From the IMG/VR virus record IMGVR_UViG_2740892005_000001: 16,188 nt of DNA; one strand, given 5' to 3'. The notes below the pieces were generated by a model. That model was not told the origin of the DNA and did not search any database. It saw only the letters and a program-made list of their open reading frames with translations. Shown here one piece after another: positions 1 through 16,188 of the stretch (within the stretch, counting starts at the first letter, position 1; each line of letters begins with the position of its first letter). The stretch is from a virus. Lineage: Duplodnaviria > Heunggongvirae > Uroviricota > Caudoviricetes. Position numbers and translations under genes: made by a program.

Positions 1-173
1 CCCCTGGTATGACCGTGGAAACGGCCCGCCGCATTCTGGCAGTTGCACCACAGAGTGCACAGGCGCGCAGTGACACTGCGCTGGATCGTCTGATGCAGGG
101 GGCACCGGCACCGCTGGCTGCAGGTAACCTGGCATCTGATGCCGTTAACGATTTGCTGAACACACCAGTGTAA
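1..173 (+). CDS. Nu3: 3' end of the capsid protease/scaffold gene (lambda C / Nu3 equivalent), truncated by the window start
   Basis: Open frame from the window edge (codons in phase with position 3) ending ...DAVNDLLNTPV then TAA at 171-173. It stops 9 nt before the D start codon, the same spacing as Nu3-D in lambda. Identification is by position and gene order; only 57 codons are visible. Confidence 0.65.
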   Translation, partial: PGMTVETARRILAVAPQSAQARSDTALDRLMQGAPAPLAAGNLASDAVNDLLNTPV

Positions 174-182
174 GGGATGTTT

Positions 183-515
183 ATGACGAGCAAAGAAACC
201 TTTACCCATTACCAGCCGCTGGGCAACAGTGACCCGGCTCATACCGCAACCGCGCCCGGCGGATTGAGTGCGAAAGCGCCTGCAATGACCCCGCTGATGC
301 TGGACACCTCCAGCCGTAAGCTGGTTGCGTGGGATGGCACCACCGACGGTGCTGCCGTTGGCATTCTTGCGGTTGCTGCTGACCAGACCAGCACCACGCT
401 GACGTTCTACAAGTCCGGCACGTTCCGTTATGAGGATGTGCTCTGGCCGGAGGCTGCCAGCGACGAGACGAAAAAACGGACCGCGTTTGCCGGAACGGCA
501 ATCAGCATCGTTTAA
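183..515 (+). CDS. D: Head decoration protein gpD
   Basis: The ORF track 177..515 translation contains [27 protein letters not shown]...GTAISIV, which matches my memory of lambda gpD (110 aa) nearly residue for residue. I place the start at the second ATG (183) because lambda gpD begins MTSKETF and an AAGGG sits 5-9 nt upstream. Confidence 0.95.
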
Positions 516-532
516 CTTTACCCTTCATCACT

Positions 533-557
533 AAAGGCCGCCTGTGCGGCTTTTTTT
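533..557 (+). terminator. GC-rich hairpin followed by a T7 run between D and E (terminator-like or RNA-stability element)
   Basis: AAAGGCCGC-CTGT-GCGGCTTTTTTT: a stem of about 9 bp with one G-U pair, a 4-nt loop, then seven T's. It lies in the 55-nt D-E intergenic gap. Confidence 0.35.
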
Positions 558-570
558 ACGGGATTTTTTT

Positions 571-1596
571 ATGTCGATGTACACAACCGCCCAGCTGCTG
601 GCGGCAAATGAGCAGAAATTTAAGTTTGATCCGCTGTTTCTGCGTCTCTTTTTCCGTGAGAGCTATCCCTTCACCACGGAGAAAGTCTATCTCTCACAAA
701 TTCCGGGACTGGTAAACATGGCGCTGTACGTTTCGCCGATTGTTTCCGGTGAGGTTATCCGTTCCCGTGGCGGCTCCACCTCTGAATTTACGCCGGGATA
801 TGTCAAGCCGAAGCATGAAGTGAATCCGCAGATGACCCTGCGTCGCCTGCCGGATGAAGATCCGCAGAATCTGGTGGACCCGGCTTACCGCCGCCGTCGC
901 ATCATCATGCAGAACATGCGTGACGAAGAGCTGGCCATTGCTCAGGTCGAAGAGATGCAGGCAGTTTCTGCCGTGCTTAAGGGCAAATACACCATGACCG
1001 GTGAAGCCTTCGATCCGGTTGAGGTGGATATGGGCCGCAGTGAGGAGAATAACATCACGCAGTCCGGCGGCACGGAGTGGAGCAAGCGTGACAAGTCCAC
1101 GTATGACCCGACCGACGATATCGAAGCCTACGCGCTGAACGCCAGCGGTGTGGTGAATATCATCGTGTTCGATCCGAAAGGCTGGGCGCTGTTCCGTTCC
1201 TTCAAAGCCGTCAAGGAGAAGCTGGATACCCGTCGTGGTTCTAATTCCGAGCTGGAGACAGCGGTGAAAGACCTGGGTAAAGCGGTGTCCTATAAGGGGA
1301 TGTATGGCGATGTGGCCATCGTCGTGTATTCCGGACAGTACGTGGAAAACGGCGTCAAAAAGAACTTCCTGCCGGACAACACGATGGTGCTGGGGAACAC
1401 TCAGGCACGCGGTCTGCGCACCTATGGCTGCATTCAGGATGCGGACGCACAGCTCGAAGGCATTAACGCCTCTGCCCGTTACCCGAAAAACTGGGTGACC
1501 ACCGGCGATCCGGCGCGTGAGTTCACCATGATTCAGTCAGCACCGCTGATGCTGCTGGCTGACCCTGATGAGTTCGTGTCCGTACAACTGGCGTAA
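571..1596 (+). CDS. E: Major capsid protein gpE
   Basis: Translation MSMYTTAQLLAANEQKFKFDPLFLRLFF...EFVSVQLA is 341 aa from the ATG at 571 and matches lambda gpE. The 544 start in the ORF track is a GTG-initiated upstream extension that would overlap the hairpin, so I reject it. Confidence 0.96.
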   Translation: MSMYTTAQLLAANEQKFKFDPLFLRLFFRESYPFTTEKVYLSQIPGLVNMALYVSPIVSGEVIRSRGGSTSEFTPGYVKPKHEVNPQMTLRRLPDEDPQNLVDPAYRRRRIIMQNMRDEELAIAQVEEMQAVSAVLKGKYTMTGEAFDPVEVDMGRSEENNITQSGGTEWSKRDKSTYDPTDDIEAYALNASGVVNIIVFDPKGWALFRSFKAVKEKLDTRRGSNSELETAVKDLGKAVSYKGMYGDVAIVVYSGQYVENGVKKNFLPDNTMVLGNTQARGLRTYGCIQDADAQLEGINASARYPKNWVTTGDPAREFTMIQSAPLMLLADPDEFVSVQLA

Positions 1597-1637
1597 TCAT
1601 GGCCCTTCGGGGCCATTGTTTCTCTGTGGAGGAGTCC

Positions 1638-2036
1638 ATGACGAAAGATGAACTGATTGCCCGTCTCCGCTCGCTGGGTGAACAACTGAACCGTGATGTC
1701 AGCCTGACGGGGACGAAAGAAGAACTGGCGCTCCGTGTGGCAGAGCTGGAAGAGGAGCTTGATGACACGGATGAAACTGCCGGTCAGGACACCCCTCTCA
1801 GCCGGGAAAATGTGCTGACCGGACATGAAAATGAGGTGGGATCAGCGCAGCCGGATACCGTGATTCTGGATACGTCTGAACTGGTCACGGTCGTGGCACT
1901 GGTGACGCTGCATACTGATGCACTTCACGCCACGCGGGATGAACCTGTGGCATTTGTGCTTCCGGGAACGGCGTTCCGTGTCTCTGCCGGTGTGGCAGCC
2001 GAAATGACAGAACGTGGCCTGGCCAGAATGCAATAA
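1638..2036 (+). CDS. FI: DNA-packaging / head completion protein gpFI
   Basis: From the ATG at 1638 (GGAGGAG RBS just upstream) the product is MTKDELIARLRSLGEQLNRDVSLTGTKEELALRVAEL..., 132 aa, matching lambda gpFI. The ORF-track start at 1599 adds 13 residues absent from lambda. Confidence 0.93.
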   Translation: MTKDELIARLRSLGEQLNRDVSLTGTKEELALRVAELEEELDDTDETAGQDTPLSRENVLTGHENEVGSAQPDTVILDTSELVTVVALVTLHTDALHATRDEPVAFVLPGTAFRVSAGVAAEMTERGLARMQ

Positions 2037-2047
2037 CGGGAGGCGCT

Positions 2048-2401
2048 GTGGCTGATTTCGATAACCTGTTCGATGCTGCCATTGTCCGCGCCGATGAAAC
2101 GATACGCGGGTACATGGGAACGTCAGCCACCATGACATCCGGTGAGCAGTCCGGCGCAGTAATACGTGGTGTTTTTGATGACCCTGAAAATATCAGCTAT
2201 GCCGGACAGGGCGTGCGCGTTGAAGGCTCCAGCCCGTCCCTGTTTGTCCGGACTGATGATGTGCGGCAGCTGCGGCGCGGCGACACGCTGACCATCGGTG
2301 AGGAAAACTTCTGGATAGACCGGATTTCGACGGATGATGGCGGAAGCTGTCATCTCTGGCTTGGGCGTGGCGTGCCGCCTGCCGTTAACCGTCGTCGCTG
2401 A
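2048..2401 (+). CDS. FII: Head-tail joining protein gpFII
   Basis: GTG-initiated ORF of 117 aa, MADFDNLFDAAIVRADETIRGYMGTSAT...VPPAVNRRR, matching lambda gpFII. An AGG is present upstream. Confidence 0.93.
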   Translation: MADFDNLFDAAIVRADETIRGYMGTSATMTSGEQSGAVIRGVFDDPENISYAGQGVRVEGSSPSLFVRTDDVRQLRRGDTLTIGEENFWIDRISTDDGGSCHLWLGRGVPPAVNRRR

Positions 2402-2412
2402 AGGGGGGATGT

Positions 2413-2991
2413 ATGGCCATAAAAGGTCTTGAGCAGGCCGTTGAAAACCTCAGCCGTATCAGCAGAACGGCGGTGCCCGGTGCCGCCGCAATGGCCATTA
2501 ACCGCGTTGCTTCATCCGCGATATCGCAGTCGGCGTCACAGGTTGCCCGTGAGACAAAGGTACGCCGGAAACTGGTAAAGGAAAGGGCCAGGCTGAAAAG
2601 GGCCACGGTCAAAAATCCGCAGGCCAGAATCAAGGTTAACCGGGGGGATTTGCCCGTAATCAGGCTGGGTAACGCGCGGGTTGTCCTGTCCCGACGCAGG
2701 CGTCGTAAAAAGGGGCAGCGTTCATCCCTGAAAGGTGGCGACAGCGTGCTTGTGGTGGGAAACCGTCGTATTCCCGGCGCGTTTATTCAGCAACTGAAAA
2801 ATGGCCGATGGCATGTCATGCAGCGTGTGGCCGGGAAAAACCGTTACCCCATTGATGTGGTGAAAATCCCGATGGCAGTGCCGCTGACCACGGCGTTTAA
2901 ACAGAATATTGAGCGGATACGGCGTGAACGTCTTCCGAAAGAGCTGGGCTATGCGCTGCAGCATCAACTGAGGATGGTAATAAAGCGATGA
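2413..2991 (+). CDS. Z: Tail completion protein gpZ
   Basis: 192 aa, MAIKGLEQAVENLSRISRTAVPGAAAMAINRV..., matching lambda gpZ in length and sequence. GGGGGGATG upstream serves as RBS. Confidence 0.93.
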   Translation: MAIKGLEQAVENLSRISRTAVPGAAAMAINRVASSAISQSASQVARETKVRRKLVKERARLKRATVKNPQARIKVNRGDLPVIRLGNARVVLSRRRRRKKGQRSSLKGGDSVLVVGNRRIPGAFIQQLKNGRWHVMQRVAGKNRYPIDVVKIPMAVPLTTAFKQNIERIRRERLPKELGYALQHQLRMVIKR

Positions 2992-3383
2992 AACATACAG
3001 AACTCCGTGCAGCCGTACTGGATGCACTGGAAAAACATGACACCGGGGCGACGCTTTTTGATGGTCGCCCCGCTGTTTTTGATGAGGAGGATTTTCCGGC
3101 AGTTGCCGTTTATCTCACCGGCGCTGAATACACGGGCGAAGAGCTGGACAGCGATACCTGGCAGGCGGAGCTGCATATTGAAGTTTTCCTGCCTGCTCAG
3201 GTGCCGGATTCAGAGCTGGATTCGTGGATGGAGTCCCGGATTTATCCGGTGATGAGCGATGTCCCGGCACTGTCAGATTTGATCACCAGTATGGTGGCCA
3301 GTGGCTATGACTACCGGCGCGACGATGATGCGGGCCTGTGGAGTTCAGCCGATCTGACTTATGTCATTACCTATGAAATGTGA
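2988..3383 (+). CDS. U: Tail terminator protein gpU
   Basis: 131 aa, [45 protein letters not shown]..., matching lambda gpU. The start overlaps the Z stop as ATGA. Confidence 0.94.
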
Positions 3384-3390
3384 GGACGAT

Positions 3391-4131
3391 ATGCCTGTAC
3401 CAAATCCAGTAATGCCGGTGAAAGGGGCCGGGACCACCCTGTGGGTTTATAAGGGGAACGGTGACCCTTATGCGAACCCGCTTTCAGACGTTGACTGGTC
3501 GCGTCTGGCTAAAGTTAAAGACCTGACGCCCGGCGAACTGAGCGCTGAGTCCTATGACGACAGCTATCTCGATGATGAAGATGCGGACTGGACTGCGACC
3601 GGGCAGGGGCAGAAATCTGCCGGAGATACCAGCTTCACGCTGGCGTGGATGCCCGGAGAGCAGGGGCAGCAGGCGCTGCTGGCGTGGTTTAATGAAGGGG
3701 ATACCCGTGCCTATAAAATCCGCTTCCCGAACGGCACGGTCGATGTGTTCCGCGGCTGGGTCAGCAGTATCGGTAAGGCGGTGACGGCGAAGGAAGTGAT
3801 CACCCGCACGGTGAAAGTCACCAACGTGGGACGTCCGTCGATGGCAGAAGATCGCAGCACGGTGACGGCGACAACCGGCATGACGGTGACACCCGCCAGT
3901 GCTTCCGTAGTGAAAGGGCAGAGCACTACGCTGACCGTGGCATTCCAGCCGGAGGGCGCAACCGACAAGAGCTTCCGTGCGGTGTCTGCGGATAAAACAA
4001 AAGCCACCGTGTCGGTCAGCGGTATGACCATCACCGTGAACGGCGTTGCTGCAGGCAAGGTCAACATTCCGGTTGTATCCGGTAATGGTGAGTTTGCTGC
4101 GGTTGCAGAAATCACCGTCACCGCCAGTTAA
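3391..4131 (+). CDS. V: Major tail tube protein gpV, with C-terminal Ig-like (Big_2-type) domain
   Basis: From the ATG at 3391 the product is 246 aa, [36 protein letters not shown]..., matching lambda gpV. The C-terminal ~90 residues ([25 protein letters not shown]...ITVTAS) have the Thr/Val-rich beta pattern of the known gpV Ig-like domain. The ORF-track start at 3361 lies inside U. Confidence 0.94.
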
Positions 4132-4146
4132 TCCGGAGAGTCAGCG

Positions 4147-4569
4147 ATGTTCCTGAAAACCGAATCATTTGAATATAACGGCGTGACCGTCACGCTTTCT
4201 GAACTGTCAGCCCTGCAGCGTATTGAGCATCTTGCCCTGATGAAACGGCAGGCAGAACCGGCGGGATCCGACAGCAACCGGCAGGTTACTGTGGAAGACG
4301 TCATCAGAACCGGCGCGTTTCTGGTGGCGATGTCCCTGTGGCATAACCATCCGAAGAAGACGCAGATGCCGTCCATGAATGAAGCCGTTAAACAGATTGA
4401 GCAGGAAGTGCTTACCACCTGGCCCACAGAGGCAATTTCTCATGCTGAAAACGTGGTGTACCGGCTGTCCGGTATGTATGAGTTTGTGGTGAATAATGCC
4501 CCCGAACAGGCAGAGGACGCCGGGCCTGCAGAGCCTGTTTCTGCGGGAAAGTGTTCGACGGTGAGCTGA
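4147..4569 (+). CDS. G: Tail assembly chaperone gpG
   Basis: 140 aa, MFLKTESFEYNGVTVTLSELSALQRIEHLALMKRQAEP...SAGKCSTVS, matching lambda gpG. GGAGAG RBS upstream. Confidence 0.94.
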   Translation: MFLKTESFEYNGVTVTLSELSALQRIEHLALMKRQAEPAGSDSNRQVTVEDVIRTGAFLVAMSLWHNHPKKTQMPSMNEAVKQIEQEVLTTWPTEAISHAENVVYRLSGMYEFVVNNAPEQAEDAGPAEPVSAGKCSTVS

Positions 4570-4985
4570 GTTTTGCCCTGAAACTGGCGCGTGAGATGGG
4601 GCGACCCGACTGGCGTGCCATGCTTGCCGGGATGTCATCCACGGAGTATGCCGACTGGCACCGCTTTTACAGTACCCATTATTTTCATGATGTTCTGCTG
4701 GATATGCACTTTTCCGGGCTGACGTACACCGTGCTCAGCCTGTTTTTCAGCGATCCGGATATGCATCCGCTGGATTTCAGTCTGCTGAACCGGCGCGAGG
4801 CTGACGAAGAGCCTGAAGATGATGTGCTGATGCAGAAAGCGGCAGGGCTTGCCGGAGGTGTCCGCTTTGGCCCGGACGGGAATGAAGTTATCCCCGCTTC
4901 CCCGGATGTGGCGGACATGACGGAGGATGACGTAATGCTGATGACAGTATCAGAAGGGATCGCAGGAGGAGTCCGGTATGGCTGA
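4147..4985 (+). CDS. T: Tail assembly chaperone fusion gpG-T, made by a programmed -1 frameshift at 4545-4551
   Basis: The T reading frame (ORF track 4551..4985, ...FDGELSFALKLAREMGRPDWRAMLAGM...) has no convincing RBS of its own and lies in the -1 frame relative to G. The slippery heptamer G GGA AAG sits at 4545-4551, 18 nt before the G stop. The predicted fusion is about 279 aa, the size known for lambda gpGT. Confidence 0.9.
4545..4551 (+). other. Programmed -1 ribosomal frameshift slippery heptamer (G GGA AAG)
   Basis: The heptamer GGGAAAG is read directly in the sequence, in the correct phase of G (GGA at 4546-4548, AAG at 4549-4551). It is the canonical lambda G-T slip site. Confidence 0.88.
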
Positions 4986-7539
4986 ACCGGTAGGCGATCT
5001 GGTCGTTGATTTGAGTCTGGATGCGGCCAGATTTGACGAGCAGATGGCCAGAGTCAGGCGTCATTTTTCCGGTACGGAAAGTGATGCGAAAAAAACAGCG
5101 GCAGTCGTTGAACAGTCGCTGAGCCGACAGGCGCTGGCTGCACAGAAAGCGGGGATTTCCGTCGGGCAGTATAAAGCCGCCATGCGTATGCTGCCTGCAC
5201 AGTTCACCGACGTGGCCACGCAGCTTGCAGGCGGGCAAAGTCCGTGGCTGATCCTGCTGCAACAGGGGGGGCAGGTGAAGGACTCCTTCGGCGGGATGAT
5301 CCCCATGTTCAGGGGGCTTGCCGGTGCGATCACCCTGCCGATGGTGGGGGCCACCTCGCTGGCGGTGGCGACCGGTGCGCTGGCGTATGCCTGGTATCAG
5401 GGCAACTCAACCCTGTCCGATTTCAACAAAACGCTGGTCCTTTCCGGCAATCAGGCGGGTCTGACGGCAGATCGTATGCTGGTCCTGTCCAGAGCCGGGC
5501 AGGCGGCAGGGCTGACGTTTAACCAGACCAGCGAGTCACTCAGCGCACTGGTTAAGGCGGGGGTAAGCGGTGAGGCTCAGATTGCGTCCATCAGCCAGAG
5601 TGTGGCGCGTTTCTCCTCTGCATCCGGCGTGGAGGTGGACAAGGTCGCTGAAGCCTTCGGGAAGCTGACCACAGACCCGACGTCGGGGCTGACGGCGATG
5701 GCACGCCAGTTCCATAACGTGACGGCGGAGCAGATTGCGTATGTTGCTCAGTTGCAGCGTTCCGGCGATGAAGCCGGGGCATTGCAGGCGGCGAACGAGG
5801 CCGCAACGAAAGGGTTTGATGACCAGACCCGCCGCCTGAAAGAGAACATGGGCACGCTGGAGACCTGGGCAGACAGGACTGCGCGGGCATTCAAATCCAT
5901 GTGGGATGCGGTGCTGGATATTGGTCGTCCTGATACCGCGCAGGAGATGCTGATTAAGGCAGAGGCTGCGTTTAAGAAAGCAGACGACATCTGGAATCTG
6001 CGCAAGGATGATTATTTTGTTAACGATGAAGCGCGGGCGCGTTACTGGGATGATCGTGAAAAGGCCCGTCTTGCGCTTGAAGCCGCCCGAAAGAAGGCTG
6101 AACAGCAGAGTCAACAGGACAAAAATGCGCAGCAGCAGAGCGATACCGAAGCGTCACGGCTGAAATATACCGAAGAGGCGCAGAAGGCTTACGAACGGCT
6201 GCAGACGCCGCTGGAGAAATATGCCGCCCGTCAGGAAGAACTGAATAAGGCCCTGAAAGACGGAAAAATCCTGCAGGCAGATTACAACACGCTGATGGCG
6301 GCAGCGAAAAAGGACTATGAAACGACACTGAAAAAGCCGAAGCAGTCCGGCGTGAAGGTGTCTGCGGGCGATCGTCAGGAAGACAGTGCTCATGCTGCCC
6401 TGCTGACGCTTCAGGCTGAACTCCGGACGCTGGAGAAGCATGCCGGAGCAAATGAGAAAATCAGCCAGCAGCGCCGGGATTTGTGGAAGGCGGAGAGTCA
6501 GTTCGCGGTACTGGAGGAGGCGGCGCAACGTCGCCAGCTGTCTGTACAGGAGAAATCCCTGCTGGCGCATAAAGATGAGACGCTGGAGTACAAACGCCAG
6601 CTGGCTGCACTTGGCGACAAGGTTACGTATCAGGAGCGCCTGAACGCGCTGGCGCAGCAGGCGGATAAATTCGCACAGCAGCAACGGGCAAAACGGGCCG
6701 CCATTGATGCGAAAAGCCGGGGGCTGACTGACCGGCAGGCAGAACGGGAAGCCACGGAACAGCGCCTGAAGGAACAGTATGGCGATAATCCGCTGGCGCT
6801 GAATAACGTCATGTCAGAGCAGAAAAAGACCTGGGCGGCTGAAGACCAGCTTCGCGGGAACTGGATGGCAGGCCTGAAGTCCGGCTGGAGTGAGTGGGAA
6901 GAGAGCGCCACGGACAGTATGTCGCAGGTAAAAAGTGCAGCCACGCAGACCTTTGATGGTATTGCACAGAATATGGCGGCGATGCTGACCGGCAGTGAGC
7001 AGAACTGGCGCAGCTTCACCCGTTCCGTGCTGTCCATGATGACAGAAATTCTGCTTAAGCAGGCAATGGTGGGGATTGTCGGGAGTATCGGCAGCGCCAT
7101 TGGCGGGGCTGTTGGTGGCGGCGCATCCGCGTCAGGCGGTACAGCCATTCAGGCCGCTGCGGCGAAATTCCATTTTGCAACCGGAGGATTTACGGGAACC
7201 GGCGGCAAATATGAGCCAGCGGGGATTGTTCACCGTGGTGAGTTTGTCTTCACGAAGGAGGCAACCAGCCGGATTGGCGTGGGGAATCTTTACCGGCTGA
7301 TGCGCGGCTATGCCACCGGCGGTTATGTCGGTACACCGGGCAGCATGGCAGACAGCCGGTCGCAGGCGTCCGGGACGTTTGAGCAGAATAACCATGTGGT
7401 GATTAACAACGACGGCACGAACGGGCAGATAGGTCCGGCTGCTCTGAAGGCGGTGTATGACATGGCCCGCAAGGGTGCCCGTGATGAAATTCAGACACAG
7501 ATGCGTGATGGTGGCCTGTTCTCCGGAGGTGGACGATGA
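4978..7539 (+). CDS. H: Tail tape measure protein gpH
   Basis: 853 aa, the exact length of lambda gpH. N-terminus MAEPVGDLVVDLSLDAARFDEQMARVRRHF; long central helical, charged region typical of tape measure proteins; Gly-rich C-terminal part. The start overlaps the end of T by 8 nt. Confidence 0.95.
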   Translation: MAEPVGDLVVDLSLDAARFDEQMARVRRHFSGTESDAKKTAAVVEQSLSRQALAAQKAGISVGQYKAAMRMLPAQFTDVATQLAGGQSPWLILLQQGGQVKDSFGGMIPMFRGLAGAITLPMVGATSLAVATGALAYAWYQGNSTLSDFNKTLVLSGNQAGLTADRMLVLSRAGQAAGLTFNQTSESLSALVKAGVSGEAQIASISQSVARFSSASGVEVDKVAEAFGKLTTDPTSGLTAMARQFHNVTAEQIAYVAQLQRSGDEAGALQAANEAATKGFDDQTRRLKENMGTLETWADRTARAFKSMWDAVLDIGRPDTAQEMLIKAEAAFKKADDIWNLRKDDYFVNDEARARYWDDREKARLALEAARKKAEQQSQQDKNAQQQSDTEASRLKYTEEAQKAYERLQTPLEKYAARQEELNKALKDGKILQADYNTLMAAAKKDYETTLKKPKQSGVKVSAGDRQEDSAHAALLTLQAELRTLEKHAGANEKISQQRRDLWKAESQFAVLEEAAQRRQLSVQEKSLLAHKDETLEYKRQLAALGDKVTYQERLNALAQQADKFAQQQRAKRAAIDAKSRGLTDRQAEREATEQRLKEQYGDNPLALNNVMSEQKKTWAAEDQLRGNWMAGLKSGWSEWEESATDSMSQVKSAATQTFDGIAQNMAAMLTGSEQNWRSFTRSVLSMMTEILLKQAMVGIVGSIGSAIGGAVGGGASASGGTAIQAAAAKFHFATGGFTGTGGKYEPAGIVHRGEFVFTKEATSRIGVGNLYRLMRGYATGGYVGTPGSMADSRSQASGTFEQNNHVVINNDGTNGQIGPAALKAVYDMARKGARDEIQTQMRDGGLFSGGGR

Positions 7540-7865
7540 AGACCTTCCGCTGGAAAGTGAAACCCGGTATGGATGTGGCTTCGGTCCCTTCTGTAAGAAA
7601 GGTGCGCTTTGGTGATGGCTATTCTCAGCGAGCGCCTGCCGGGCTGAATGCCAACCTGAAAACGTACAGCGTGACGCTTTCTGTCCCCCGTGAGGAGGCC
7701 ACGGTACTGGAGTCGTTTCTGGAAGAGCACGGGGGCTGGAAATCCTTTCTGTGGACGCCGCCTTATGAGTGGCAGCAGATAAAGGTGACCTGCGCAAAAT
7801 GGTCGTCGCGGGTCAGTATGCTGCGTGTTGAGTTCAGCGCAGAGTTTGAACAGGTGGTGAACTGA
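7536..7865 (+). CDS. M: Tail tip protein gpM
   Basis: 109 aa, MKTFRWKVKPGMDVASVPSVRKVRFGDGYSQRA..., matching lambda gpM. ATGA overlap with the H stop. Confidence 0.94.
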   Translation: MKTFRWKVKPGMDVASVPSVRKVRFGDGYSQRAPAGLNANLKTYSVTLSVPREEATVLESFLEEHGGWKSFLWTPPYEWQQIKVTCAKWSSRVSMLRVEFSAEFEQVVN

Positions 7866-8563
7866 TGCAGGATATCCGGCAGGAAACACTGAATGAATGC
7901 ACCCGTGCGGAGCAGTCGGCCAGCGTGGTGCTCTGGGAAATCGACCTGACAGAGGTCGGTGGAGAACGTTATTTTTTCTGTAATGAGCAGAACGAAAAAG
8001 GTGAGCCGGTCACCTGGCAGGGGCGACAGTATCAGCCGTATCCCATTCAGGGGAGCGGTTTTGAACTGAATGGCAAAGGCACCAGTACGCGCCCCACGCT
8101 GACGGTTTCTAACCTGTACGGTATGGTCACCGGGATGGCGGAAGATCTGCAGAGTCTGGTCGGCGGAACGGTGGTCCGGCGTAAGGTTTACGCCCGTTTT
8201 CTGGATGCGGTGAACTTCGTCAACGGAAACAGTTATGCCGATCCGGAGCAGGAGGTGATCAGCCGCTGGCGCATTGAGCAGTGCAGCGAACTGAGCGCGG
8301 TGAGTGCCTCCTTTGTACTGTCCACGCCGACGGAAACGGATGGCGCTGTTTTTCCGGGACGTATCATGCTGGCCAACACCTGCACCTGGACCTATCGCGG
8401 TGACGAGTGCGGTTATAGCGGTCCGGCTGTCGCGGATGAATATGACCAGCCAACGTCCGATATCACGAAGGATAAATGCAGCAAATGCCTGAGCGGTTGT
8501 AAGTTCCGCAATAACGTCGGCAACTTTGGCGGCTTCCTTTCCATTAACAAACTTTCGCAGTAA
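7865..8563 (+). CDS. L: Tail tip protein gpL (Cys-cluster, Fe-S type)
   Basis: 232 aa, MQDIRQETLNECTRAEQSASVVLWEIDLTEVGGERYFF..., matching lambda gpL. C-terminal cysteine cluster C-x-W-x-Y-R-G-D-E-C ... C-S-K-C-L-S-G-C. The start shares one nucleotide with the M stop (TGATG). Confidence 0.94.
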   Translation: MQDIRQETLNECTRAEQSASVVLWEIDLTEVGGERYFFCNEQNEKGEPVTWQGRQYQPYPIQGSGFELNGKGTSTRPTLTVSNLYGMVTGMAEDLQSLVGGTVVRRKVYARFLDAVNFVNGNSYADPEQEVISRWRIEQCSELSAVSASFVLSTPTETDGAVFPGRIMLANTCTWTYRGDECGYSGPAVADEYDQPTSDITKDKCSKCLSGCKFRNNVGNFGGFLSINKLSQ

Positions 8564-8567
8564 TCCC

Positions 8568-9311
8568 ATGACACAGACAGAATCAGCGATTCTGGCGCAC
8601 GCCCGGCGATGTGCGCCAGCGGAGTCGTGTGGCTTCGTGGTGAGAACGCCGAAGGGGGAAAGATATTTTCCCTGCGTGAATATCTCCGGTGAGCCGGAGG
8701 CGTATTTCCGGATGTCGCCGGAGGACTGGCTGCGGGCAGAGATGCAGGGTGAGATTGTGGCGCTGGTCCACAGCCACCCCGGTGGTCTGCCCTGGCTGAG
8801 TGAGGCTGACAGGCGGCTGCAGGTGCAGAGCGATTTGCCGTGGTGGCTGGTCTGCCGGGGTGAGATTCATAAATTCCGCTGTGTGCCGCATCTTACCGGG
8901 CGGTGCTTTGAGCACGGGGTGACGGACTGTTACACGCTGTTCCGGGATGCTTATCATCTGGCGGGGATTGAGATGCCGGATTTTCATCGTGAGGATGACT
9001 GGTGGCGTCACGGTCAGAATCTCTATCTGGATAATCTGGAGGCCACAGGGCTGTATCAGGTGCCGTTGTCATCAGCACAACCGGGCGATGTGCTGCTGTG
9101 CTGTTTTGGTTCATCGGTGCCGAATCATGCCGCCATTTACTGTGGTGATGGCGAGCTGCTGCACCATATTCCTGAACAACTGAGCAAACGAGAGAGGTAT
9201 ACCGACAAATGGCAGCGACGCACACACTCCCTCTGGCGTCACCGGGCATGGCGCGCATCTGCCTTTACGGGGATTTACAACGATTTGGCCGCCGCATCGA
9301 CCTTCGTGTGA
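8568..9311 (+). CDS. K: Tail tip assembly protein gpK (JAMM/MPN-like N-terminal domain plus NlpC/P60-like C-terminal domain)
   Basis: ATG at 8568 lies 5 nt after the L stop. The product MTQTESAILAHARRCAPAESCGFVV... is 247 aa and contains the JAMM signature HSHPGGLPWLSEAD (H-x-H-x7-S-x2-D) plus a Cys (GVTDCYTLF) and downstream His (NHAAIY) as in NlpC/P60 peptidases. The ORF-track start at 8526 lies inside L. Confidence 0.9.
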   Translation: MTQTESAILAHARRCAPAESCGFVVRTPKGERYFPCVNISGEPEAYFRMSPEDWLRAEMQGEIVALVHSHPGGLPWLSEADRRLQVQSDLPWWLVCRGEIHKFRCVPHLTGRCFEHGVTDCYTLFRDAYHLAGIEMPDFHREDDWWRHGQNLYLDNLEATGLYQVPLSSAQPGDVLLCCFGSSVPNHAAIYCGDGELLHHIPEQLSKRERYTDKWQRRTHSLWRHRAWRASAFTGIYNDLAAASTFV

Positions 9312-9850
9312 AAACGGGGGCTGAAGCCATCCGGGCGCTGGCCACACAGCTCCCGGCGTTTCGTCAGAAACTGAGCGACGGCTGGTATCAGGTACGGATT
9401 GCCGGGCGTGATACAGGTGAAACGGAATTATCAGCCCGTCTTAATGAACCGCTGGCAAATGGTGCTGTGATCCATATCGTGCCGCGTCTGGCAGGAGCCA
9501 AAAGTGGCGGTGTGTTTCAGGCTGTGCTGGGGGCGGCTGTTATGGCGGTTGCTATATGGATGCCGGGGGTAGGAATTATGGCGAGTAATCTGCTGTTTTC
9601 TCTCGGTGCCAGTATGACGCTTGGCGGTGTTGCACAGATGCTGGCCCCTAAACCCAGAACCCCCCGCACACAGACAACGGATAACGGCAAACAGAACACC
9701 TATTTTTCTTCACTGGATAATATGGTTGCCCAGGGCAATGTTCTGCCCGTTCTGTACGGTGAAATGCGCGTGGGATCACGTGTGGTATCTCAGGAGATCA
9801 GCACAGCAGATGAAGGTGATGGTGGTCAGGTTGTGGTGATTGGTCGCTGA
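9209..9850 (+). CDS. I: Tail tip assembly protein gpI
   Basis: 213 aa, MAATHTLPLASPGMARICLYGDLQRFGRRIDLRVKTGAEAIRALATQLP..., with N- and C-termini (...VVSQEISTADEGDGGQVVVIGR) matching lambda gpI as I recall it. It overlaps the 3' end of K by 103 nt in another frame, as in lambda. It is about 10 codons shorter than lambda gpI (223 aa), with a different central hydrophobic segment. Confidence 0.88.
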   Translation: MAATHTLPLASPGMARICLYGDLQRFGRRIDLRVKTGAEAIRALATQLPAFRQKLSDGWYQVRIAGRDTGETELSARLNEPLANGAVIHIVPRLAGAKSGGVFQAVLGAAVMAVAIWMPGVGIMASNLLFSLGASMTLGGVAQMLAPKPRTPRTQTTDNGKQNTYFSSLDNMVAQGNVLPVLYGEMRVGSRVVSQEISTADEGDGGQVVVIGR

Positions 9851-9867
9851 TGAAAAACGTTTTATGT

Positions 9868-9895
9868 GAAACCGCCTCCGGGCGGTTTTATCGTT
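9868..9895 (+). terminator. Hairpin in the I-J intergenic region (weak terminator-like or RNA structural element)
   Basis: GAAACCGCC-TCCG-GGCGGTTTT: an 8-bp stem and a 4-nt loop with T's at the 3' side, 18 nt after the I stop and about 20 nt before the J RBS (GGAG at 9899-9902). Confidence 0.3.
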
Positions 9896-9910
9896 TATGG
9901 AGCATGACGA

Positions 9911-12900
9911 ATGGGTAAAGGCAGCAGTAAGGGGCATACCCCGCGCGAAGCGAAGGACAACCTGAAGTCCACGCAGCTGCTGAGTGTGATCGATGCCATC
10001 AGCGAAGGGCCGGTTGAAGGTCCGGTGGATGGATTAAAAAGCGTGCTGCTGAACAGTACGCCGGTGCTGGACAGTGAGGGGAATACCAATATATCCGGCG
10101 TCACGGTGGTGTTCCGGGCCGGTGAGCAGGAGCAGTCACCGCCGGAGGGATTTGAATCCTCCGGCTCCGAGACGGTGCTGGGTACGGAAGTGAAATATGA
10201 CACGCCGATCACCCGGACCATCACGTCGGCAAACATCGACCGTCTGCGCTTTACCTTCGGTGTACAGGCACTGGTGGAAACCACCTCAAAGGGAGACAGG
10301 AATCCGTCGGAAGTTCGCCTGCTGGTTCAGATACAGCGTAACGGTGGCTGGGTGACGGAAAAAGACATCACCATTAAGGGCAAAACCACCTCGCAGTATC
10401 TGGCCTCGGTGGTGGTGGATAACCTGCCGCCGCGCCCGTTTAATATCCGGATGCGCAGGATGACGCCGGACAGCACCACAGACCAGCTGCTGAACAAAAC
10501 GCTCTGGTCGTCATACACCGAAATCATCGATGTGAAACAGTGCTACCCGAACACGGCACTGGTTGGCGTGCAGGTGGACTCGGAGCAGTTCGGCAGCCAG
10601 CAGGTGAGCCGTAATTATCATCTTCGCGGGCGCATTCTGCAGGTGCCGTCGAACTATAACCCGCAGACGCGGCAATACAGCGGTATCTGGGACGGAACGT
10701 TAAAACCGGCATACAGCAACAACATGGCCTGGTGTCTGTGGGATATGCTGACCCATCCGCGCTACGGCATGGGGAAACGTCTTGGTGCGGCGGATGTGGA
10801 TAAATGGGCGCTGTATGTCATCGGCCAGTACTGCGACCAGTCGGTGCCGGACGGCTTTGGCGGCACGGAGCCGCGCATTACCTGTAATGCGTACCTGACC
10901 ACACAGCGCAAGGCGTGGGATGTGCTCAGTGATTTCTGCTCGGCGATGCGCTGTATGCCGGTATGGAACGGGCAGACGCTGACGTTCGTGCAGGACCGAC
11001 CATCAGATAAGGTGTGGACCTATAACCGCAGTAATGTGGTGATGCCGGATGATGGCGCGCCGTTCCGCTACAGCTTCAGCGCCCTGAAGGACCGCCATAA
11101 TGCCGTTGAGGTGAACTGGATTGACCCGGATAACGGCTGGGAGACGGCGACAGAGCTCGTGGAGGATACGCAGGCCATTGCCCGTTACGGCCGTAACGTC
11201 ACGAAGATGGATGCCTTTGGCTGTACCAGCCGGGGGCAGGCACACCGCGCCGGGCTGTGGCTGATTAAAACGGAGCTGCTGGAAACGCAGACCGTGGACT
11301 TCAGCGTGGGTGCTGAAGGGCTTCGCCATGTACCGGGGGATGTCATTGAAATCTGCGATGATGACTATGCCGGTATCAGCACCGGTGGTCGTGTGCTGGC
11401 GGTGAACAGCCAGACCCGGACGCTGACGCTCGACCGTGAAATCACGCTGCCATCCTCCGGTACCACGCTGATAAGCCTGGTTGACGGAAGTGGCAATCCG
11501 GTCAGCGTGGAGGTTCAGTCCGTCACCGACGGCGTGAAGGTGAAAGTGAGCCGTGTTCCTGACGGTGTTGCTGAATACAGCGTATGGGGGCTGAAGCTGC
11601 CGACGCTGCGCCAGCGACTGTTCCGCTGCGTGAGTATCCGTGAAAACGACGACGGCACGTATGCCATCACCGCCGTGCAGCATGTGCCGGAAAAAGAGAC
11701 CATCGTGGATAACGGGGCGCACTTTGACGGCGAACAGAGTGGCACGGTGAATGGTGTCACGCCGCCCGCGGTGCAGCACCTGACCGCAGAAGTCACCGCA
11801 GACAGCGGGGAATATCAGGTGCTGGCGCGATGGGACACACCGAAGGTGGTGAAGGGGGTGAGCTTTATGCTTCGCCTGACCGTGGCAGCGGATGACGGCA
11901 GTGAGCGGCTGGTCAGCACGGCCAGGACGACGGAAACCACATACCGCTTCAGGCAACTGGCGCTGGGGAACTACAGGCTGACAGTCCGGGCGGTAAATGC
12001 GTGGGGGCAGCAGGGGGATCCGGCGTCGGTATCGTTCCGGATTGCCGCACCGGCAGCGCCATCGCGGATTGAGCTGACGCCGGGCTATTTTCAGATAACC
12101 GCAACGCCGCATCTTGCCGTTTATGATCCGACGGTACAGTTTGAGTTCTGGTTCTCGGAAAAGCGGATTGCGGATATCAGGCAGGTTGAAGCCAGCGCGC
12201 GTTATCTTGGTACGGCGCTGTACTGGATAGCCGCCAGTATCAATATCAAACCGGGCCATGATTATTATTTTTACATTCGCAGTGTGAACACCGTTGGCAA
12301 ATCGGCATTTGTGGAGGCTGTTGGCCAGCCGAGTGATGATGCATCCGGCTATCTGGATTTTTTCAAAGGAGAGATAGGGAAAACCCATCTGGCTCAGGAG
12401 TTGTGGACGCAGATTGATAACGGTCAGCTTGCGCCTGACCTGGCTGAAATCAGGACGTCCATTACGGATGTCAGCAATGAAATCACGCAGACCGTCAATA
12501 AGAAACTGGAAGACCAGAGTGCAGCGATCCAGCAGATACAGAAGGTTCAGGTTGATACAAATAATAACCTGAACAGCATGTGGGCTGTGAAGCTGCAGCA
12601 GATGCAGGACGGACGCCTTTATATCGCGGGTATTGGTGCCGGTATTGAGAATACCCCTGACGGTATGCAGAGTCAGGTGCTGCTGGCGGCGGACAGGATT
12701 GCGATGATTAATCCTGCGAATGGCAATACAAAGCCGATGTTTGTTGGGCAGGGCGATCAGATATTCATGAACGAAGTGTTCCTGAAATATCTGACGGCTC
12801 CCACCATTACCAGCGGTGGCAATCCCCCAACGTTTTCACTGACACCTGATGGTCGACTTTCTGCGAGAAATGCGGATATCAGCGGTAACGTGAATGCGAA

Positions 12901-13393
12901 CTCCGGGACGCTCAATAATGTCACGATTAACCAGAACTGTCGGATTCTGGGAAAACTGTCAGCTAACCAGATTGAAGGTGATATTGTCAAAACGGTGGGA
13001 AAAGCCTTTCCGAGAAATGGCAGTTATGCCAGCGGTACAATAACGGTCACTGTGTACGATGACCAGGCTTTTGACCGTCAGATAGTCGTCCCCCCCGTTC
13101 TGTTTCGCGGTGGTAAGCATGAAAACTTCAACAGCAACAACCAACAGTCATACTGGTATTCAACCTGTAAGCTGCAGGTGCTGAAGAACGGACAGGAAAT
13201 CTTTCAGCAACCCGCGACGGATGTCAGCAGGGTATTTTCATCAGTCATTGATATGCCTGCCGGACACGGCCATGTCACCCTGACTTTCAATGTTTCTTCA
13301 TATGGTGCAAATAACTGGACGCCAACGACCAGTATCAGCGACCTTCTTGTTGTCGTGATGAAGAAATCAACAGCCGGCATCAGTATCAGTTGA
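9911..13393 (+). CDS. J: Central tail fibre / host specificity protein gpJ (1160 aa), with an apparently divergent C-terminal receptor-binding region
   Basis: N-terminus [34 protein letters not shown]... and the first ~800 residues match lambda gpJ as I recall it, including the fibronectin-III-like central region. Lambda gpJ is 1132 aa and this ORF is 1160 aa. The final ~300 residues (from about ...[29 protein letters not shown]... to ...[16 protein letters not shown]) do not match my memory of lambda J. Confidence 0.93.
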
Positions 13394-13410
13394 ATTTTAA
13401 AACCCAAATT

Positions 13411-13440
13411 CGGGCACCAGAAATGGTGCCTTTTTTATTT
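13411..13440 (+). terminator. Rho-independent terminator-like hairpin immediately downstream of J
   Basis: CGGGCACC-AGAAAT-GGTGCC followed by TTTTTTATTT: a perfect 6-7 bp GC-rich stem with a U-tract, 18 nt after the J stop and about 12 nt before the stf start. Confidence 0.55.
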
Positions 13441-13451
13441 GTGGAGTGAAT

Positions 13452-15473
13452 ATGGCAGTACAGATTTCAGGTGTGCTGAAAGACGGTGCAGGAAAACCGA
13501 TACAGAACTGCACCATTCAGCTCAAAGCAAAACGTAACAGCACCACAGTTGTGGTGAACACGGTGGCCTCAGAAAATCCGGATGAAGCCGGACGTTACAG
13601 CATGGATGTTGAGTATGGCCAGTACAGCGTCGCCCTGCTGGTTGAAGGTTTTCCGCCTTCACATGCCGGGACCATCACCGTGTATGAGGATTCTAAGCCG
13701 GGGACATTGAATGATTTTCTGGGCGCTGCAACAGAAGATGATGTTTGTCCGGAGGCACTGTATCGTTTTGAAAAGATGGTGGAAGAGGCGGCACGCAACG
13801 CTGAAGCCGCCTCTCAGAGCGCAGCGGCAGCAAAGAAATCAGAAACAGCAGCGGCATCGTCCAGGAACGCGGCGAAAACATCAGAGACGAATGCAGGTAA
13901 CAGCGCGAAAGCGGCAGCTTCTTCAAAAACAGCCGCACAAAACGCAGCAACAGCGGCAGAACGTTCAGAGACAAATGCCCGTGCGTCAGAAGAAGCCTCC
14001 GCAGACAGTGAAGAGGCTTCCCGCCGTAATGCAGAGTCAGCCGCTGAAAATGCCGGAGTCGCCACCACAAAAGCGCGGGAGGCCGCAGCAGACGCAACAA
14101 AGGCCGGGCAGAAAAAGGATGAGGCTCTGTCGGCAGCGACACGAGCTGAAAAGGCGGCAGACCGCGCAGAAGCCGCAGCGGAAGTGACTGCAGAGCCCTG
14201 TGCGAATATAGTGCCGCCGCTGCCTGATGTGTGGATACCGTTTAACGATTCACTGGATATGATTACGGGTTTTTCGCCATCTTATAAAAAGATAGTTATT
14301 GGTGACGATGAAATAACAATGCCAGGCGACAAGATTGTTAAGTTTAAACGTGCTTCAACAGCAACGTATATTAATAAGTCCGGCCAACTCAAGCTTGCTG
14401 AAGTTGACGAACCGCGATTTGAGCGCGATGGCTTATTGATTGAAGGACAGAGGACAAATTATCTGAGGAACTCAAATAAACCAGACTCATGGACTGTTCA
14501 TTCCGCACTGAATAAAACATTTGGCACTGATAAACAGGGGTTCAATTATGCCACGGTGACACCCACGGAAAGTATAGTGGGAACAACAGGTGGCTATACT
14601 GTGCATGGTGTGGTTGCAGCAGACAGATTCCCGCTGGCAAGTGGTGAATGTTTCACTTTTTCGTGCCGGGTTAAAGGCGCTAAAGCACGATGCAGGTTAA
14701 GAGTTTCAGTTATTATTGGTGGAACAGATACCTTCTCTGCTGACTCTTATCTTGATCTGGATACCCGGATCGCAACAGTAAGCGGTAATACATCCCTTAT
14801 AACAGCCAAAGCTGAACAACAGGGCGAGTGGACCTACTATGAGGCCACTTATACAGCTAATACGGACATTGATACCGTTAACTGTGCTTTTTATATGACA
14901 AATAAAATAAGTAATGAGACATTCTATGATGACTCAACATTAACCATGACGACGCCGCAAATTGAACTGGGCAATACGGCATCGTCATTTATTGTAACTA
15001 CAATGCCAACAACACGCGCAAGTGATGTAGTTACTATCCCATCGCAGAATAACCTGTCAACACGGCCTTTTACGGTATTGTGCGAAGTAAGCAGGAACTG
15101 GAGTACACCGCCCAATGTTGCGCCAAGGATATTTGATGTTGGAGGGCACAGTATTGATGATAATTATTTATCGCTGGGGTTTGTTGCAACAGGAAAGATA
15201 AGCGCCAACGTAGGAATGGTTCAGCCACAAATTGCCTCAGATGGAGAAAGGTTCATTGTGGGTGTGAGAGCTAAATCTGATTTATCAGTAAATGCAATAT
15301 GCAATGGTAATTATACAACAAACCTTAATGGTAAAATATTTGGAGTTACAGCAACATCGTACCGGTTTGGTGGGCAGACCGCAGCAGGAACGCGTCATTT
15401 GTTTGGACACATCAGAAATTTCAGAGTCTGGTTTAAAGAATTAAATGACAGGCAAATCAAGGAGGCAGTATGA
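13452..15473 (+). CDS. stf: Side tail fibre protein (Stf-like), chimeric: lambda-Stf-like N-terminus, Ala/Ser-rich repeat shaft, unrelated AT-rich C-terminal domain
   Basis: ATG at 13452 with GGAG 5 nt upstream. N-terminus MAVQISGVLKDGAGKPIQNCTIQLKAKRNSTTVVVNTVASENPDEAGRYSMDVEYGQYSV... closely resembles the lambda Stf (orf-401) N-terminus, followed by an A/S/E/T/N-rich repetitive segment. From about residue 250 (nt ~14200) the sequence and base composition change to a domain I cannot place. 673 aa in total. Confidence 0.85.
   Translation: MAVQISGVLKDGAGKPIQNCTIQLKAKRNSTTVVVNTVASENPDEAGRYSMDVEYGQYSVALLVEGFPPSHAGTITVYEDSKPGTLNDFLGAATEDDVCPEALYRFEKMVEEAARNAEAASQSAAAAKKSETAAASSRNAAKTSETNAGNSAKAAASSKTAAQNAATAAERSETNARASEEASADSEEASRRNAESAAENAGVATTKAREAAADATKAGQKKDEALSAATRAEKAADRAEAAAEVTAEPCANIVPPLPDVWIPFNDSLDMITGFSPSYKKIVIGDDEITMPGDKIVKFKRASTATYINKSGQLKLAEVDEPRFERDGLLIEGQRTNYLRNSNKPDSWTVHSALNKTFGTDKQGFNYATVTPTESIVGTTGGYTVHGVVAADRFPLASGECFTFSCRVKGAKARCRLRVSVIIGGTDTFSADSYLDLDTRIATVSGNTSLITAKAEQQGEWTYYEATYTANTDIDTVNCAFYMTNKISNETFYDDSTLTMTTPQIELGNTASSFIVTTMPTTRASDVVTIPSQNNLSTRPFTVLCEVSRNWSTPPNVAPRIFDVGGHSIDDNYLSLGFVATGKISANVGMVQPQIASDGERFIVGVRAKSDLSVNAICNGNYTTNLNGKIFGVTATSYRFGGQTAAGTRHLFGHIRNFRVWFKELNDRQIKEAV
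13780..14190 (+). repeat. Degenerate in-frame tandem repeats encoding the Ala/Ser/Glu-rich fibre shaft of Stf
   Basis: Recurring protein motifs of about 14 residues (SETAAASSRNAAKT / SETNAGNSAKAAAS / SKTAAQNAATAAER / SETNARASEEASAD ...), with GCN/GCA-rich nucleotide sequence. These repeats explain the spurious long ORFs in the other frames here (13711..14187 + and 13693..14142 -). Confidence 0.5.
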
Positions 15474-15748
15474 AAGATTTAACTTTGAAATTTCCTGGTA
15501 ACAGAGAGTTTAAATCCTTCCTGTCATCTCTTGACTGGGAGGAGGATGAAGACCTCCAGAATAAACTGTTAGTCGATGAAATTGGTTTCACCTACACAGA
15601 AACAGGGGTAACAGAAGAGGGAGAACCTGTCTGTGTCCGGAATGACGGTTATTTTGTCAACATTCGCATTCTTGATGACTTGTTTGATGTTTCTGTATTC
15701 TCTGATTATGTCGTGGAGCTGGAAACACCGCTTCGGGAATGGAGCTGA
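15470..15748 (+). CDS. Hypothetical small acidic protein (92 aa), translationally coupled to stf; possible fibre-tip chaperone or accessory protein
   Basis: ATG at 15470 overlaps the stf stop (ATGA) and has a strong RBS AAGGAGG 4-5 nt upstream. Product MKDLTLKFPGNREFKSFLSSLDWEEDEDLQNKLLVDEIGF... is rich in D/E. It has no resemblance to lambda Tfa that I can see. AT-rich like the stf 3' part. Confidence 0.6.
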   Translation: MKDLTLKFPGNREFKSFLSSLDWEEDEDLQNKLLVDEIGFTYTETGVTEEGEPVCVRNDGYFVNIRILDDLFDVSVFSDYVVELETPLREWS

Positions 15749-15760
15749 AAGGAGGAAATA

Positions 15761-16054
15761 ATGGATATAAGCCCCTTACTTCATGCACTTTGTGCTGTGG
15801 CTGCGCAGATACTGGTTGGTCTTTTTACCGGAAACTGGGCTTACGGAGCGATAGCCGGTTGTACGTTCTTCATTGCGCGTGAACATACCCAGGCAGAATA
15901 TCGCTGGATTGAAATGTTCGGGCATGGCAAGCGAATGAATATGCCGTGGTGGGGCGGTTTTGATCCGCGAGCTTGGGATGTGGCAAGCCTGATGGATTTT
16001 GCTGTGCCGGTGGTGGCGTGTCTGCTGGTCTGGCTGTTGGTTAATCGTGGGTGA
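15761..16054 (+). CDS. Hypothetical small membrane protein (97 aa, two predicted hydrophobic helices)
   Basis: Very strong RBS AAAGGAGG about 6 nt upstream of ATG 15761. Product has an N-terminal hydrophobic stretch (LLHALCAVAAQILVGLFTGNWAYGAIAGCTFFIA), a Trp/charge-rich middle (EYRWIEMFGHGKRMNMPWWGGFDPRAWD) and a C-terminal hydrophobic stretch (FAVPVVACLLVWLLV). Not recognised as any lambda late protein. Confidence 0.6.
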   Translation: MDISPLLHALCAVAAQILVGLFTGNWAYGAIAGCTFFIAREHTQAEYRWIEMFGHGKRMNMPWWGGFDPRAWDVASLMDFAVPVVACLLVWLLVNRG

Positions 16055-16071
16055 AAAAAGGTGAGCTGTAT

Positions 16072-16188
16072 ATGCAACGGAGGAAGAAACCCCGTTGCTG
16101 GAAGCCAGGAAAAAGTATGAAGTGGTTTACTGAATTTGGCCACCTGAACAGAGGTGATATGCTCACCTCAGAACAACACAGGTGCCAT
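16072..16188 (+). CDS. Possible 5' end of a further ORF running off the window (basic N-terminus MQRRKKPRCWKPGKSMKWFTEFGH...)
   Basis: ATG at 16072 with AAGGTGAG about 6 nt upstream; open to the window end (39 codons). Too short and truncated to call with confidence. Confidence 0.3.
   Translation, partial: MQRRKKPRCWKPGKSMKWFTEFGHLNRGDMLTSEQHRCH

Follow-up and report, generated by a model that had tools for sequence, protein, structure and literature searches.

The stf gene described here lies in a 16,188-nucleotide (nt) stretch of Caudoviricetes DNA (IMG/VR record IMGVR_UViG_2740892005_000001), hereafter the window, and encodes a side tail fibre that can be compared with several known systems. 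The phages 21 (OL657228, CPT_21_22), 1H12, Lambda_2E9 and Lambda_ev087 have the same gene order, anchor, shaft, neck and C-terminal tail as the window. The Stf of phage lambda (Ur-lambda) shares with the window Stf the N-terminal anchor of Pfam family PF08400, the position after J and the role as side fibre. The gene transfer agent of Rhodobacter capsulatus (RcGTA) possesses a head spike fibre, Rcc01080 (PDB 6tb9/6tsu chain), present as a single copy on capsid vertices and attached by an N-terminal Leu-Gly repeat; according to a passage of PMC7296036 that cites Westbye 2016, this fibre mediates attachment to the polysaccharide capsule. In phage IrisVonRoten (Bas32, Tequintavirus), Gp22 is a proximal fibre with a predicted C-terminal 'galectin-like domain', a possible additional receptor-binding domain (PMC11990801), and in the view of the BASEL collection's authors these siphoviruses bind O-antigen or glycans with their lateral fibres (PMC8594841). 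T5 pb1 and DT57C LtfA-LtfB are L-shaped lateral fibres of siphoviruses with coiled-coil shafts and O-antigen recognition, and the DT57C fibres are branched.

By comparison with these systems, the window feature is best explained as a side tail fibre belonging to a lambdoid phage or prophage of the phage 21 type (Jouyvirus). The stf open reading frame (ORF) is located directly downstream of the J homologue (9911-13393), which closes the tail-gene block of the window. In phages 1H12 and 21, both classified as Jouyvirus, J and stf are followed by a 92-aa ORF, then by the gene for a 97-aa membrane protein and, on the other strand, by sitDCBA. The translation of the stf ORF (13446/13452-15473) starts with MAVQISGVLKDG and includes SHAGTITVYEDS. 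PF08400 'Prophage tail fibre N-terminal' covers its residues 1-131 (E=2.8e-67; score 225 bits, cut-off 26.6), and residues 1-94 match the solved lambda Stf fragment PDB 9e7m (E=1.5e-49), as expected from the first-pass annotation, made from the sequence alone, which had described a start like that of lambda Stf. With this anchor and a position directly 3' of J, the gene is a lambdoid side tail fibre gene.

The similarity to lambda is restricted to the beginning of the gene. In the comparison with the lambda J-stf-tfa locus, blastn similarity was confined to 13435-13801, with 84% DNA identity, and tblastn with the full Stf aligned only residues 1-110, with 84.5% protein identity; both searches were empty beyond nt 13801 and residue 110, respectively, and the distal module alone gave nothing better than E=1.4 (tblastn). 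No similarity between the two proteins was found past residue ~117, in agreement with the earlier statement that some 420 distal residues, here counted as 427, do not resemble lambda Stf. A Caudo_TAP gene is also missing downstream of stf, where no ORF gave a significant Pfam match; instead of the Tfa of lambda, the window encodes a protein of PHROG 1361. Unlike lambda, the window has no lom gene between J and stf. The Stf of Gifsy-1, which recognises Gal II in the core of lipopolysaccharide (LPS), was considered as a relative and rejected, as it is of lambda type and does not carry the module of the window.

Past the anchor, the fibre continues through a shaft (residues 105-246) composed of 36% Ala and 11% Ser. 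Its hydrophobic positions autocorrelate with maxima at 7, 14 and 21 and give a Fourier peak at 3.5; with this clear heptad periodicity in an Ala/Ser-rich segment, the shaft is a coiled coil. The first-pass annotation had described an Ala/Ser-rich repeat shaft, which is true for composition and heptads; a search for tandem repeats in the DNA found none, so the periodicity exists only at the protein level. The sequence changes at '...AEVTAEPCANIVPPLPDVWIPFND' (nt ~14175-14245), and the distal part of 427 residues starts after '...AEPCANIVPPLPDVWIPFND' (nt ~14190).

The distal part belongs to families already present in public databases. PHROG 1419 matches the whole Stf (E=2e-294) as well as the module alone (E=2.3e-173, profile positions 352-793). 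NCBIfam NF048003 'phage head spike fiber' scores 65.7 bits on residues 329-523, above its curated cut-off of 36, and the match takes in model positions 1-181 of 182. At residues ~524-670, Laminin_G_3 (PF13385) scored 20.3 bits, below the Pfam gathering score of 27.6; it was also below the cut-off in nine of nine homologues (best E=6.9e-6), and PF13385 is precomputed on several relatives of the module. The earlier description of this part as having an unknown fold and no recognisable family has to be given up in view of these matches.

An initial search for homologues of the window module gave nothing but fragments with 100% identity. Two profile searches yielded about 50 module sequences with 34-49% identity, which were used for alignment. 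A phmmer search with domains A and B against 1.84 billion cluster representatives found only 46 clusters, against more than 2,400 proteins of the module family from the profile searches; the small number of clusters is explained by the high variability of domains A and B and not by rarity of the family. Among PDB sequences, a search with the single Stf sequence matched only the lambda N-terminal fragment, and a profile of nine modules matched the RcGTA fibre Rcc01080 (E=1e-17) over ~235 residues. Rcc01080 is homologous to domain A and part of the neck of the window Stf. Unlike in the RcGTA fibre, domain A of the window lies in the end part of a coiled-coil tail fibre, with a LamG-like domain after it.

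In an AlphaFold2 (AF2) model of the distal module (monomer, 51 sequences), domain A (residues ~345-505) reached a predicted local distance difference test score (pLDDT) of 80-93. The best single-domain fold matches were non-catalytic, namely CBM40, pentraxins, LamG, BoNT Hc and NTNH. The distal part is thus modelled as two concanavalin A (ConA)-like lectin domains with a jelly-roll beta-sandwich. The lectin-like or jelly-roll tip that had been guessed from composition agrees with the model and its fold matches.

Similar modules were found behind different N-termini, including the lambdoid PF08400, the P2-type PF12571/PF03406, the T5 LtfA type and the rV5 type, as well as in fibres of Dhillonvirus and Drexlerviridae. 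The whole 427-residue module aligns with IrisVonRoten Gp22 (43% identical) and with lateral fibres of T5-like, Drexlerviridae, Dhillonvirus and rV5-like phages (PHROG 1419/5939) at 32-61% identity. These lateral fibres have the same small ORF downstream as the window and different N-terminal anchors. The presence of one module on lambdoid, T5-like, P2-like and rV5-like anchors shows that the distal part is horizontally mobile and portable, as had been proposed for a receptor module. T5 pb1 and the DT57C fibres differ from the window Stf, as they carry a C-terminal S74 intramolecular chaperone and have unrelated distal domains; Peptidase_S74 (PF13884) gave no Pfam match in the window Stf at E<=1. 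DT57C LtfA/LtfB was also considered as a model for the T5-like homologues, and was ruled out by its S74 chaperone domains and unrelated tips.

Phage 21, the nearest relative that diverges from the window, possesses the same architecture with a different allele of the lectin-like domains. In the blastn comparison, 13000-14461 aligned at 94.3% identity and 15362-16118 at 94.6%, with nothing alignable between them. At the protein level, Stf is near-identical to that of phage 21 up to residue ~337 and again in the final ~30 residues; between these parts the identity is ~30%. With the DNA joins at 14461/15362, the cassette that distinguishes both phages lies within the distal part. The first-pass annotation had placed a graft point at nt ~14200. 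This position is a domain boundary and not a mapped recombination joint; comparison with the lambdoid Stf proteins placed the breakpoints at ~13801 against lambda and at 14461/15362 against phage 21. The graft is old and widespread and not peculiar to the window, since phage 21 has the same architecture; the phage 21 record gives a Paris sewer in the late 1950s as source.

Identities by segment were obtained from nine aligned modules of lambdoid, T5-like, rV5-like, Dhillonvirus and Drexlerviridae phages. For the neck (residues 247-337), identity to the window is 40% in the rV5-like phage and 60-86% in the remaining seven of the eight phages compared; for the C-tail (641-673) it is 45-79%. Hypervariability is limited to the two lectin-like domains: identities are 23-35% in domain A (338-525) and 22-35% in domain B (526-640), but 79% in domain B of the T5-like Stokescottia. 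Domain A of the window is 85% identical to that of the BASEL coliphage KarlJaspers and of phiE31-2, and 60% to that of JenP2 and Es2. As domains A and B have different nearest relatives, they were apparently exchanged as independent cassettes at conserved flanks.

Table. Positions of the fibre gene, its parts and the adjacent features in the window
Feature	Coordinates	Strand	Remarks
Terminator-like hairpin and T-run between J and stf	13412..13431	+	predicted; consensus scan
stf, side tail fibre gene	13452..15473	+	673 aa; ATG at 13452 taken as start, in-frame GTG at 13446
N-terminal anchor, lambda Stf type	13452..13844	+	aa 1-131; PF08400, 9e7m, lambda DNA identity
Ala/Ser-rich heptad coiled-coil shaft	13764..14189	+	aa ~105-246; composition and hydrophobic periodicity
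Conserved 'neck'	14190..14435	+	aa 247-328; PLPDVWIPFNDSL...ASTATYINKSG; conserved among aligned modules
Variable lectin-like domain A, head-spike-fibre / CBM-like jelly roll	14436..15020	+	aa 329-523; NF048003, AF2 model
Variable lectin-like domain B and conserved C-terminal tail, LamG/ConA-like	15021..15461	+	aa 524-670
Cassette differing from phage 21	14462..15361	+	aa ~338-637; flanks 94% identical DNA (blastn)
orf92, small acidic protein	15470..15748	+	92 aa, pI 4.05; start overlaps stf stop (ATGA)
orf97, putative membrane protein	15761..16054	+	PHROG 1443; occupies the site of the second fibre gene elsewhere

The lectin-like domains of Stf probably bind a surface glycan reversibly. This reading is based on the homology of domain A to the capsule-attaching RcGTA fibre, Laminin_G_3 in domain B, the mosaicism and the literature on lateral fibres. 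In the proposed mechanism, the lambda-type N-terminal domain anchors the fibre to the tail tip, the Ala-rich heptad coiled coil forms the shaft and would hold the fibre together as a trimer, and the distal 427 residues are a portable receptor-binding module consisting of the neck, two variable ConA-like jelly rolls and the conserved C-tail. By binding reversibly to a polysaccharide of the cell surface, for example O-antigen, LPS core or capsule, the fibre would enrich virions at the cell and speed up adsorption before J engages its outer-membrane receptor. Specificity would be changed by cassette recombination at the neck and the C-tail, with the two variable domains exchanged independently among both temperate and virulent coliphages. 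The acidic orf92 product, translationally coupled to stf, belongs to the module, takes the position of Tfa and is probably an assembly or accessory factor.

Several points weigh against glycan binding. Literature searches found no receptor assignment for the module family and no study of phage 21 Stf, and the reported target of lambda Stf is a protein, OmpC (PMC11338833; also PMC11990801). The AF2 model is weak overall (mean pLDDT 61.5), with the neck below 50 and domain B at 45-74. The PDB entry of the RcGTA fibre resolves only residues 2-10, so there is no experimental structure or template for the homologous domain. The jelly-roll fold is common to glycoside hydrolases and lyases (GH16, PL7), and the fold alone cannot separate binding from catalysis. 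Since most other phages use the module as the proximal part of two fibres, its main role could be structural.

The last point concerns the genes downstream of the module. The orf92 product matches PHROG 1361 (E=1.6e-39), a family with a label that gives no function, and a homologue was found directly after the module in every context examined, namely lambdoid, T5-like, rV5-like, Dhillonvirus, Drexlerviridae, P2-like and phiG7. A single-sequence AF2 model of orf92 was discarded as too poor to use (pLDDT 54). In most other phages with the module, including most of the group of IrisVonRoten and the related T5-like, Drexlerviridae, Dhillonvirus and rV5-like phages, a further fibre gene follows the small ORF. 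Its product is a 574-586-aa protein of S74 type in T5-like phages and phiG7, a Gp34_trimer protein accompanied by Caudo_TAP in a P2-like prophage, a 347-aa protein in the lambdoid PhiR11_1, and proteins of 225 and 98 aa in swan01 and KarlBarth. These products share the N-terminal motif xTxTxIPxDIxxLK and are otherwise unrelated. In six-frame searches the motif was found in nine other loci, corresponding to seven distinct phages and two copies of one P2-like prophage; the window lacks it, as do phage 21, 1H12 and the prophage locus of E. coli. In the window, orf97 follows orf92 directly (junction 15749-15760), with no distal fibre gene between them. PhiR11_1 has the order stf, small ORF and orf97, with the 347-aa fibre gene (locus 4117-5157) inserted before an orf97 that is 94% identical. 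Relative to PhiR11_1, the window and the phage-21 lineage would therefore lack exactly the second fibre gene. No description of this absence was found in the literature searched. According to the phage 21 annotation, the orf97 product has two transmembrane domains; conservation of orf97 is 100% for phage 21 and 1H12 as well as for the prophage.

The order of module, small ORF and further fibre gene in T5-like phages, Drexlerviridae, Dhillonvirus, P2-like phages, phiG7 and PhiR11_1, together with the motif at the start of the second fibres, is what would be expected if the module were mainly a branching adaptor, or 'proximal fibre'. The neck or C-tail, possibly with orf92, would then dock a distal fibre bearing the real tip, and the window fibre would be a truncated remnant with little or no receptor function in a phage-21 lineage that lost the distal gene. 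The T-shaped fibre Gp24 of IrisVonRoten has indeed been modelled as attached to the module homologue Gp22 (PMC11990801). However, docking of a second fibre to the module is a prediction only, and the two lectin-like domains are hypervariable and exchanged as cassettes, which is expected of a surface under host-range selection and not of a passive adaptor. Moreover, stf is intact and conserved in hundreds of genomes and in twelve phage records. We consider it unlikely that the module is mainly such an adaptor and the window fibre a remnant.

Binding of the distal module to an outer-membrane protein instead of a glycan would be analogous to the reported use of OmpC by lambda Stf, and ConA-like domains such as LamG and BoNT Hc can bind proteins too. 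Nevertheless, the module has no homology to the distal region of lambda Stf, its closest functional relative, the RcGTA fibre, binds capsule polysaccharide, and members of the family occur on lateral fibres which the BASEL authors associate with recognition of O-antigen, all of which make a protein receptor improbable. That one jelly-roll domain is an enzyme, a GH16- or PL7-type hydrolase or lyase degrading O-antigen or capsule like a tailspike, is very doubtful, since the best single-domain fold matches are non-catalytic, no hydrolase or lyase family was matched by sequence in Pfam or NCBIfam searches, and identity to the fold-matched enzymes is only 6-13%.

Along with glycan binding by the window fibre, a wider arrangement can be tentatively suggested. 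The module, orf92 and the next fibre might constitute a widespread three-gene branched-fibre system, made of the proximal fibre's conserved neck and C-tail, an acidic 92-aa partner dedicated to it and, at the N-terminus of the distal fibre, a docking peptide. The motif xTxTxIPxDIxxLK may be this docking peptide for the module-bearing fibre. Phage 21 and the window lineage would represent natural variants that lack a distal fibre and rely on the proximal lectin domains alone as receptor-binding tip, and orf92 would be a new kind of assembly or adaptor factor replacing Tfa. We regard this scheme as possible, though it is less probable than not. Only the logic of the three-gene cassette and the missing distal fibre in the phage-21 lineage are mildly new points, since stf itself is an ordinary mosaic tail fibre with its sequence and family already in public databases; the initial finding was a correct reading of an already catalogued fibre and opens no new question. 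The two lectin-like cassettes between conserved recombination flanks represent a natural swap point, which could help to retarget lambda-based delivery particles.

The G+C (GC) content is 43.1% over 14190-15473 and 56.7% over 1-13445. The first-pass annotation had taken a sharp drop, hand-counted as about 55% and 33% in two 60-nt lines, as the mark of horizontal acquisition. The second line (14281-14340) was computed at 33.3%, in accordance with the count, and the first (13801-13860) at 58.3%. The discontinuity itself is real: the best single all-position change point (maximum likelihood) is nt 14240, and the lowest-GC interval of 1284 bp in the whole sequence begins at 14241. However, the drop can be read as a mark of horizontal transfer only in part, and much of it is Ala codon bias of the shaft. 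GC at second codon positions is 0.667 in the shaft, from Ala GCN codons, and the sharp step at the shaft end is largely due to the codon composition of this 36%-Ala segment.

GC at third codon positions (GC3) declines gradually from the tail genes to the distal part of stf. The successive values are 0.66 (tail genes), 0.55 (J, last 1.2 kb), 0.50 (stf N-terminus), 0.45 (shaft), 0.37 (distal part), 0.42 (orf92) and 0.51 (orf97). For stf alone, GC3 has its change point at nt 14268 (from 0.48 to 0.36; log-likelihood ratio 5.2; permutation p ~0.03), a modest shift. The GC content of the module tracks that of its genome, amounting to 38-40% in T5-like phages, to 54% in Dhillonvirus KarlBarth and to 43-44% in lambdoid phages, where it stays below the surrounding DNA. 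This modest signal fits an import of the module from lower-GC coliphages. The 3' end of J (12200-13393) has a GC content of 0.49 and a GC3 of 0.55, against 0.56 and 0.66 for the whole J, and this receptor-binding end of J may be a separate mosaic segment.

The stretch from stf to orf92 (13446-15748) is 100% identical in eleven phage records, including 1H12, Lambda_2E9, Lambda_4B5 and Lambda_ev087, and shares 99.7% DNA identity with phage PhiR47_2. Among 5,426 complete E. coli genomes, 517 contain it over at least 80% of its length; the prophage that bears this host-adsorption fibre is very common in E. coli. Source names on proteins identical to Stf include O25b:H4-ST131, and their database labels are 'side tail fiber protein', 'tail protein' and 'phage head spike fiber domain-containing protein'. 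In NZ_CP023844.1 (locus 4007-6028, equal to 13452-15473 of the window), PGAP splits an intact and identical 673-aa ORF into two 'pseudogene' pieces, labelled as N-terminal domain and head spike fiber domain; the split looks like an annotation artefact rather than a disrupted gene.

Promoter and terminator scans gave counts at chance level, with the hairpin between J and stf as sole exception. This hairpin is GC-rich and followed by a T-run, and the equivalent site of phage 21 is annotated as a terminator in its record. If it is a terminator, stf would be expressed by read-through.

The iron/manganese transporter operon sitDCBA is located just downstream of the fibre in related prophage records. 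It lies on the opposite strand ~90 nt past orf97 in phage 21, 1H12 and the E. coli prophage (8701-12150 of locus L002 and 5740-8342 of locus L001), and by position alone the right edge of the window is expected to reach the 3' end of sitDCBA. In phage 4A7 (locus 3767-6146), transposase genes are present directly after a truncated module, and in one E. coli chromosome (NZ_CM190141.1) the IS3-like ISEc52 is inserted within the fibre gene.

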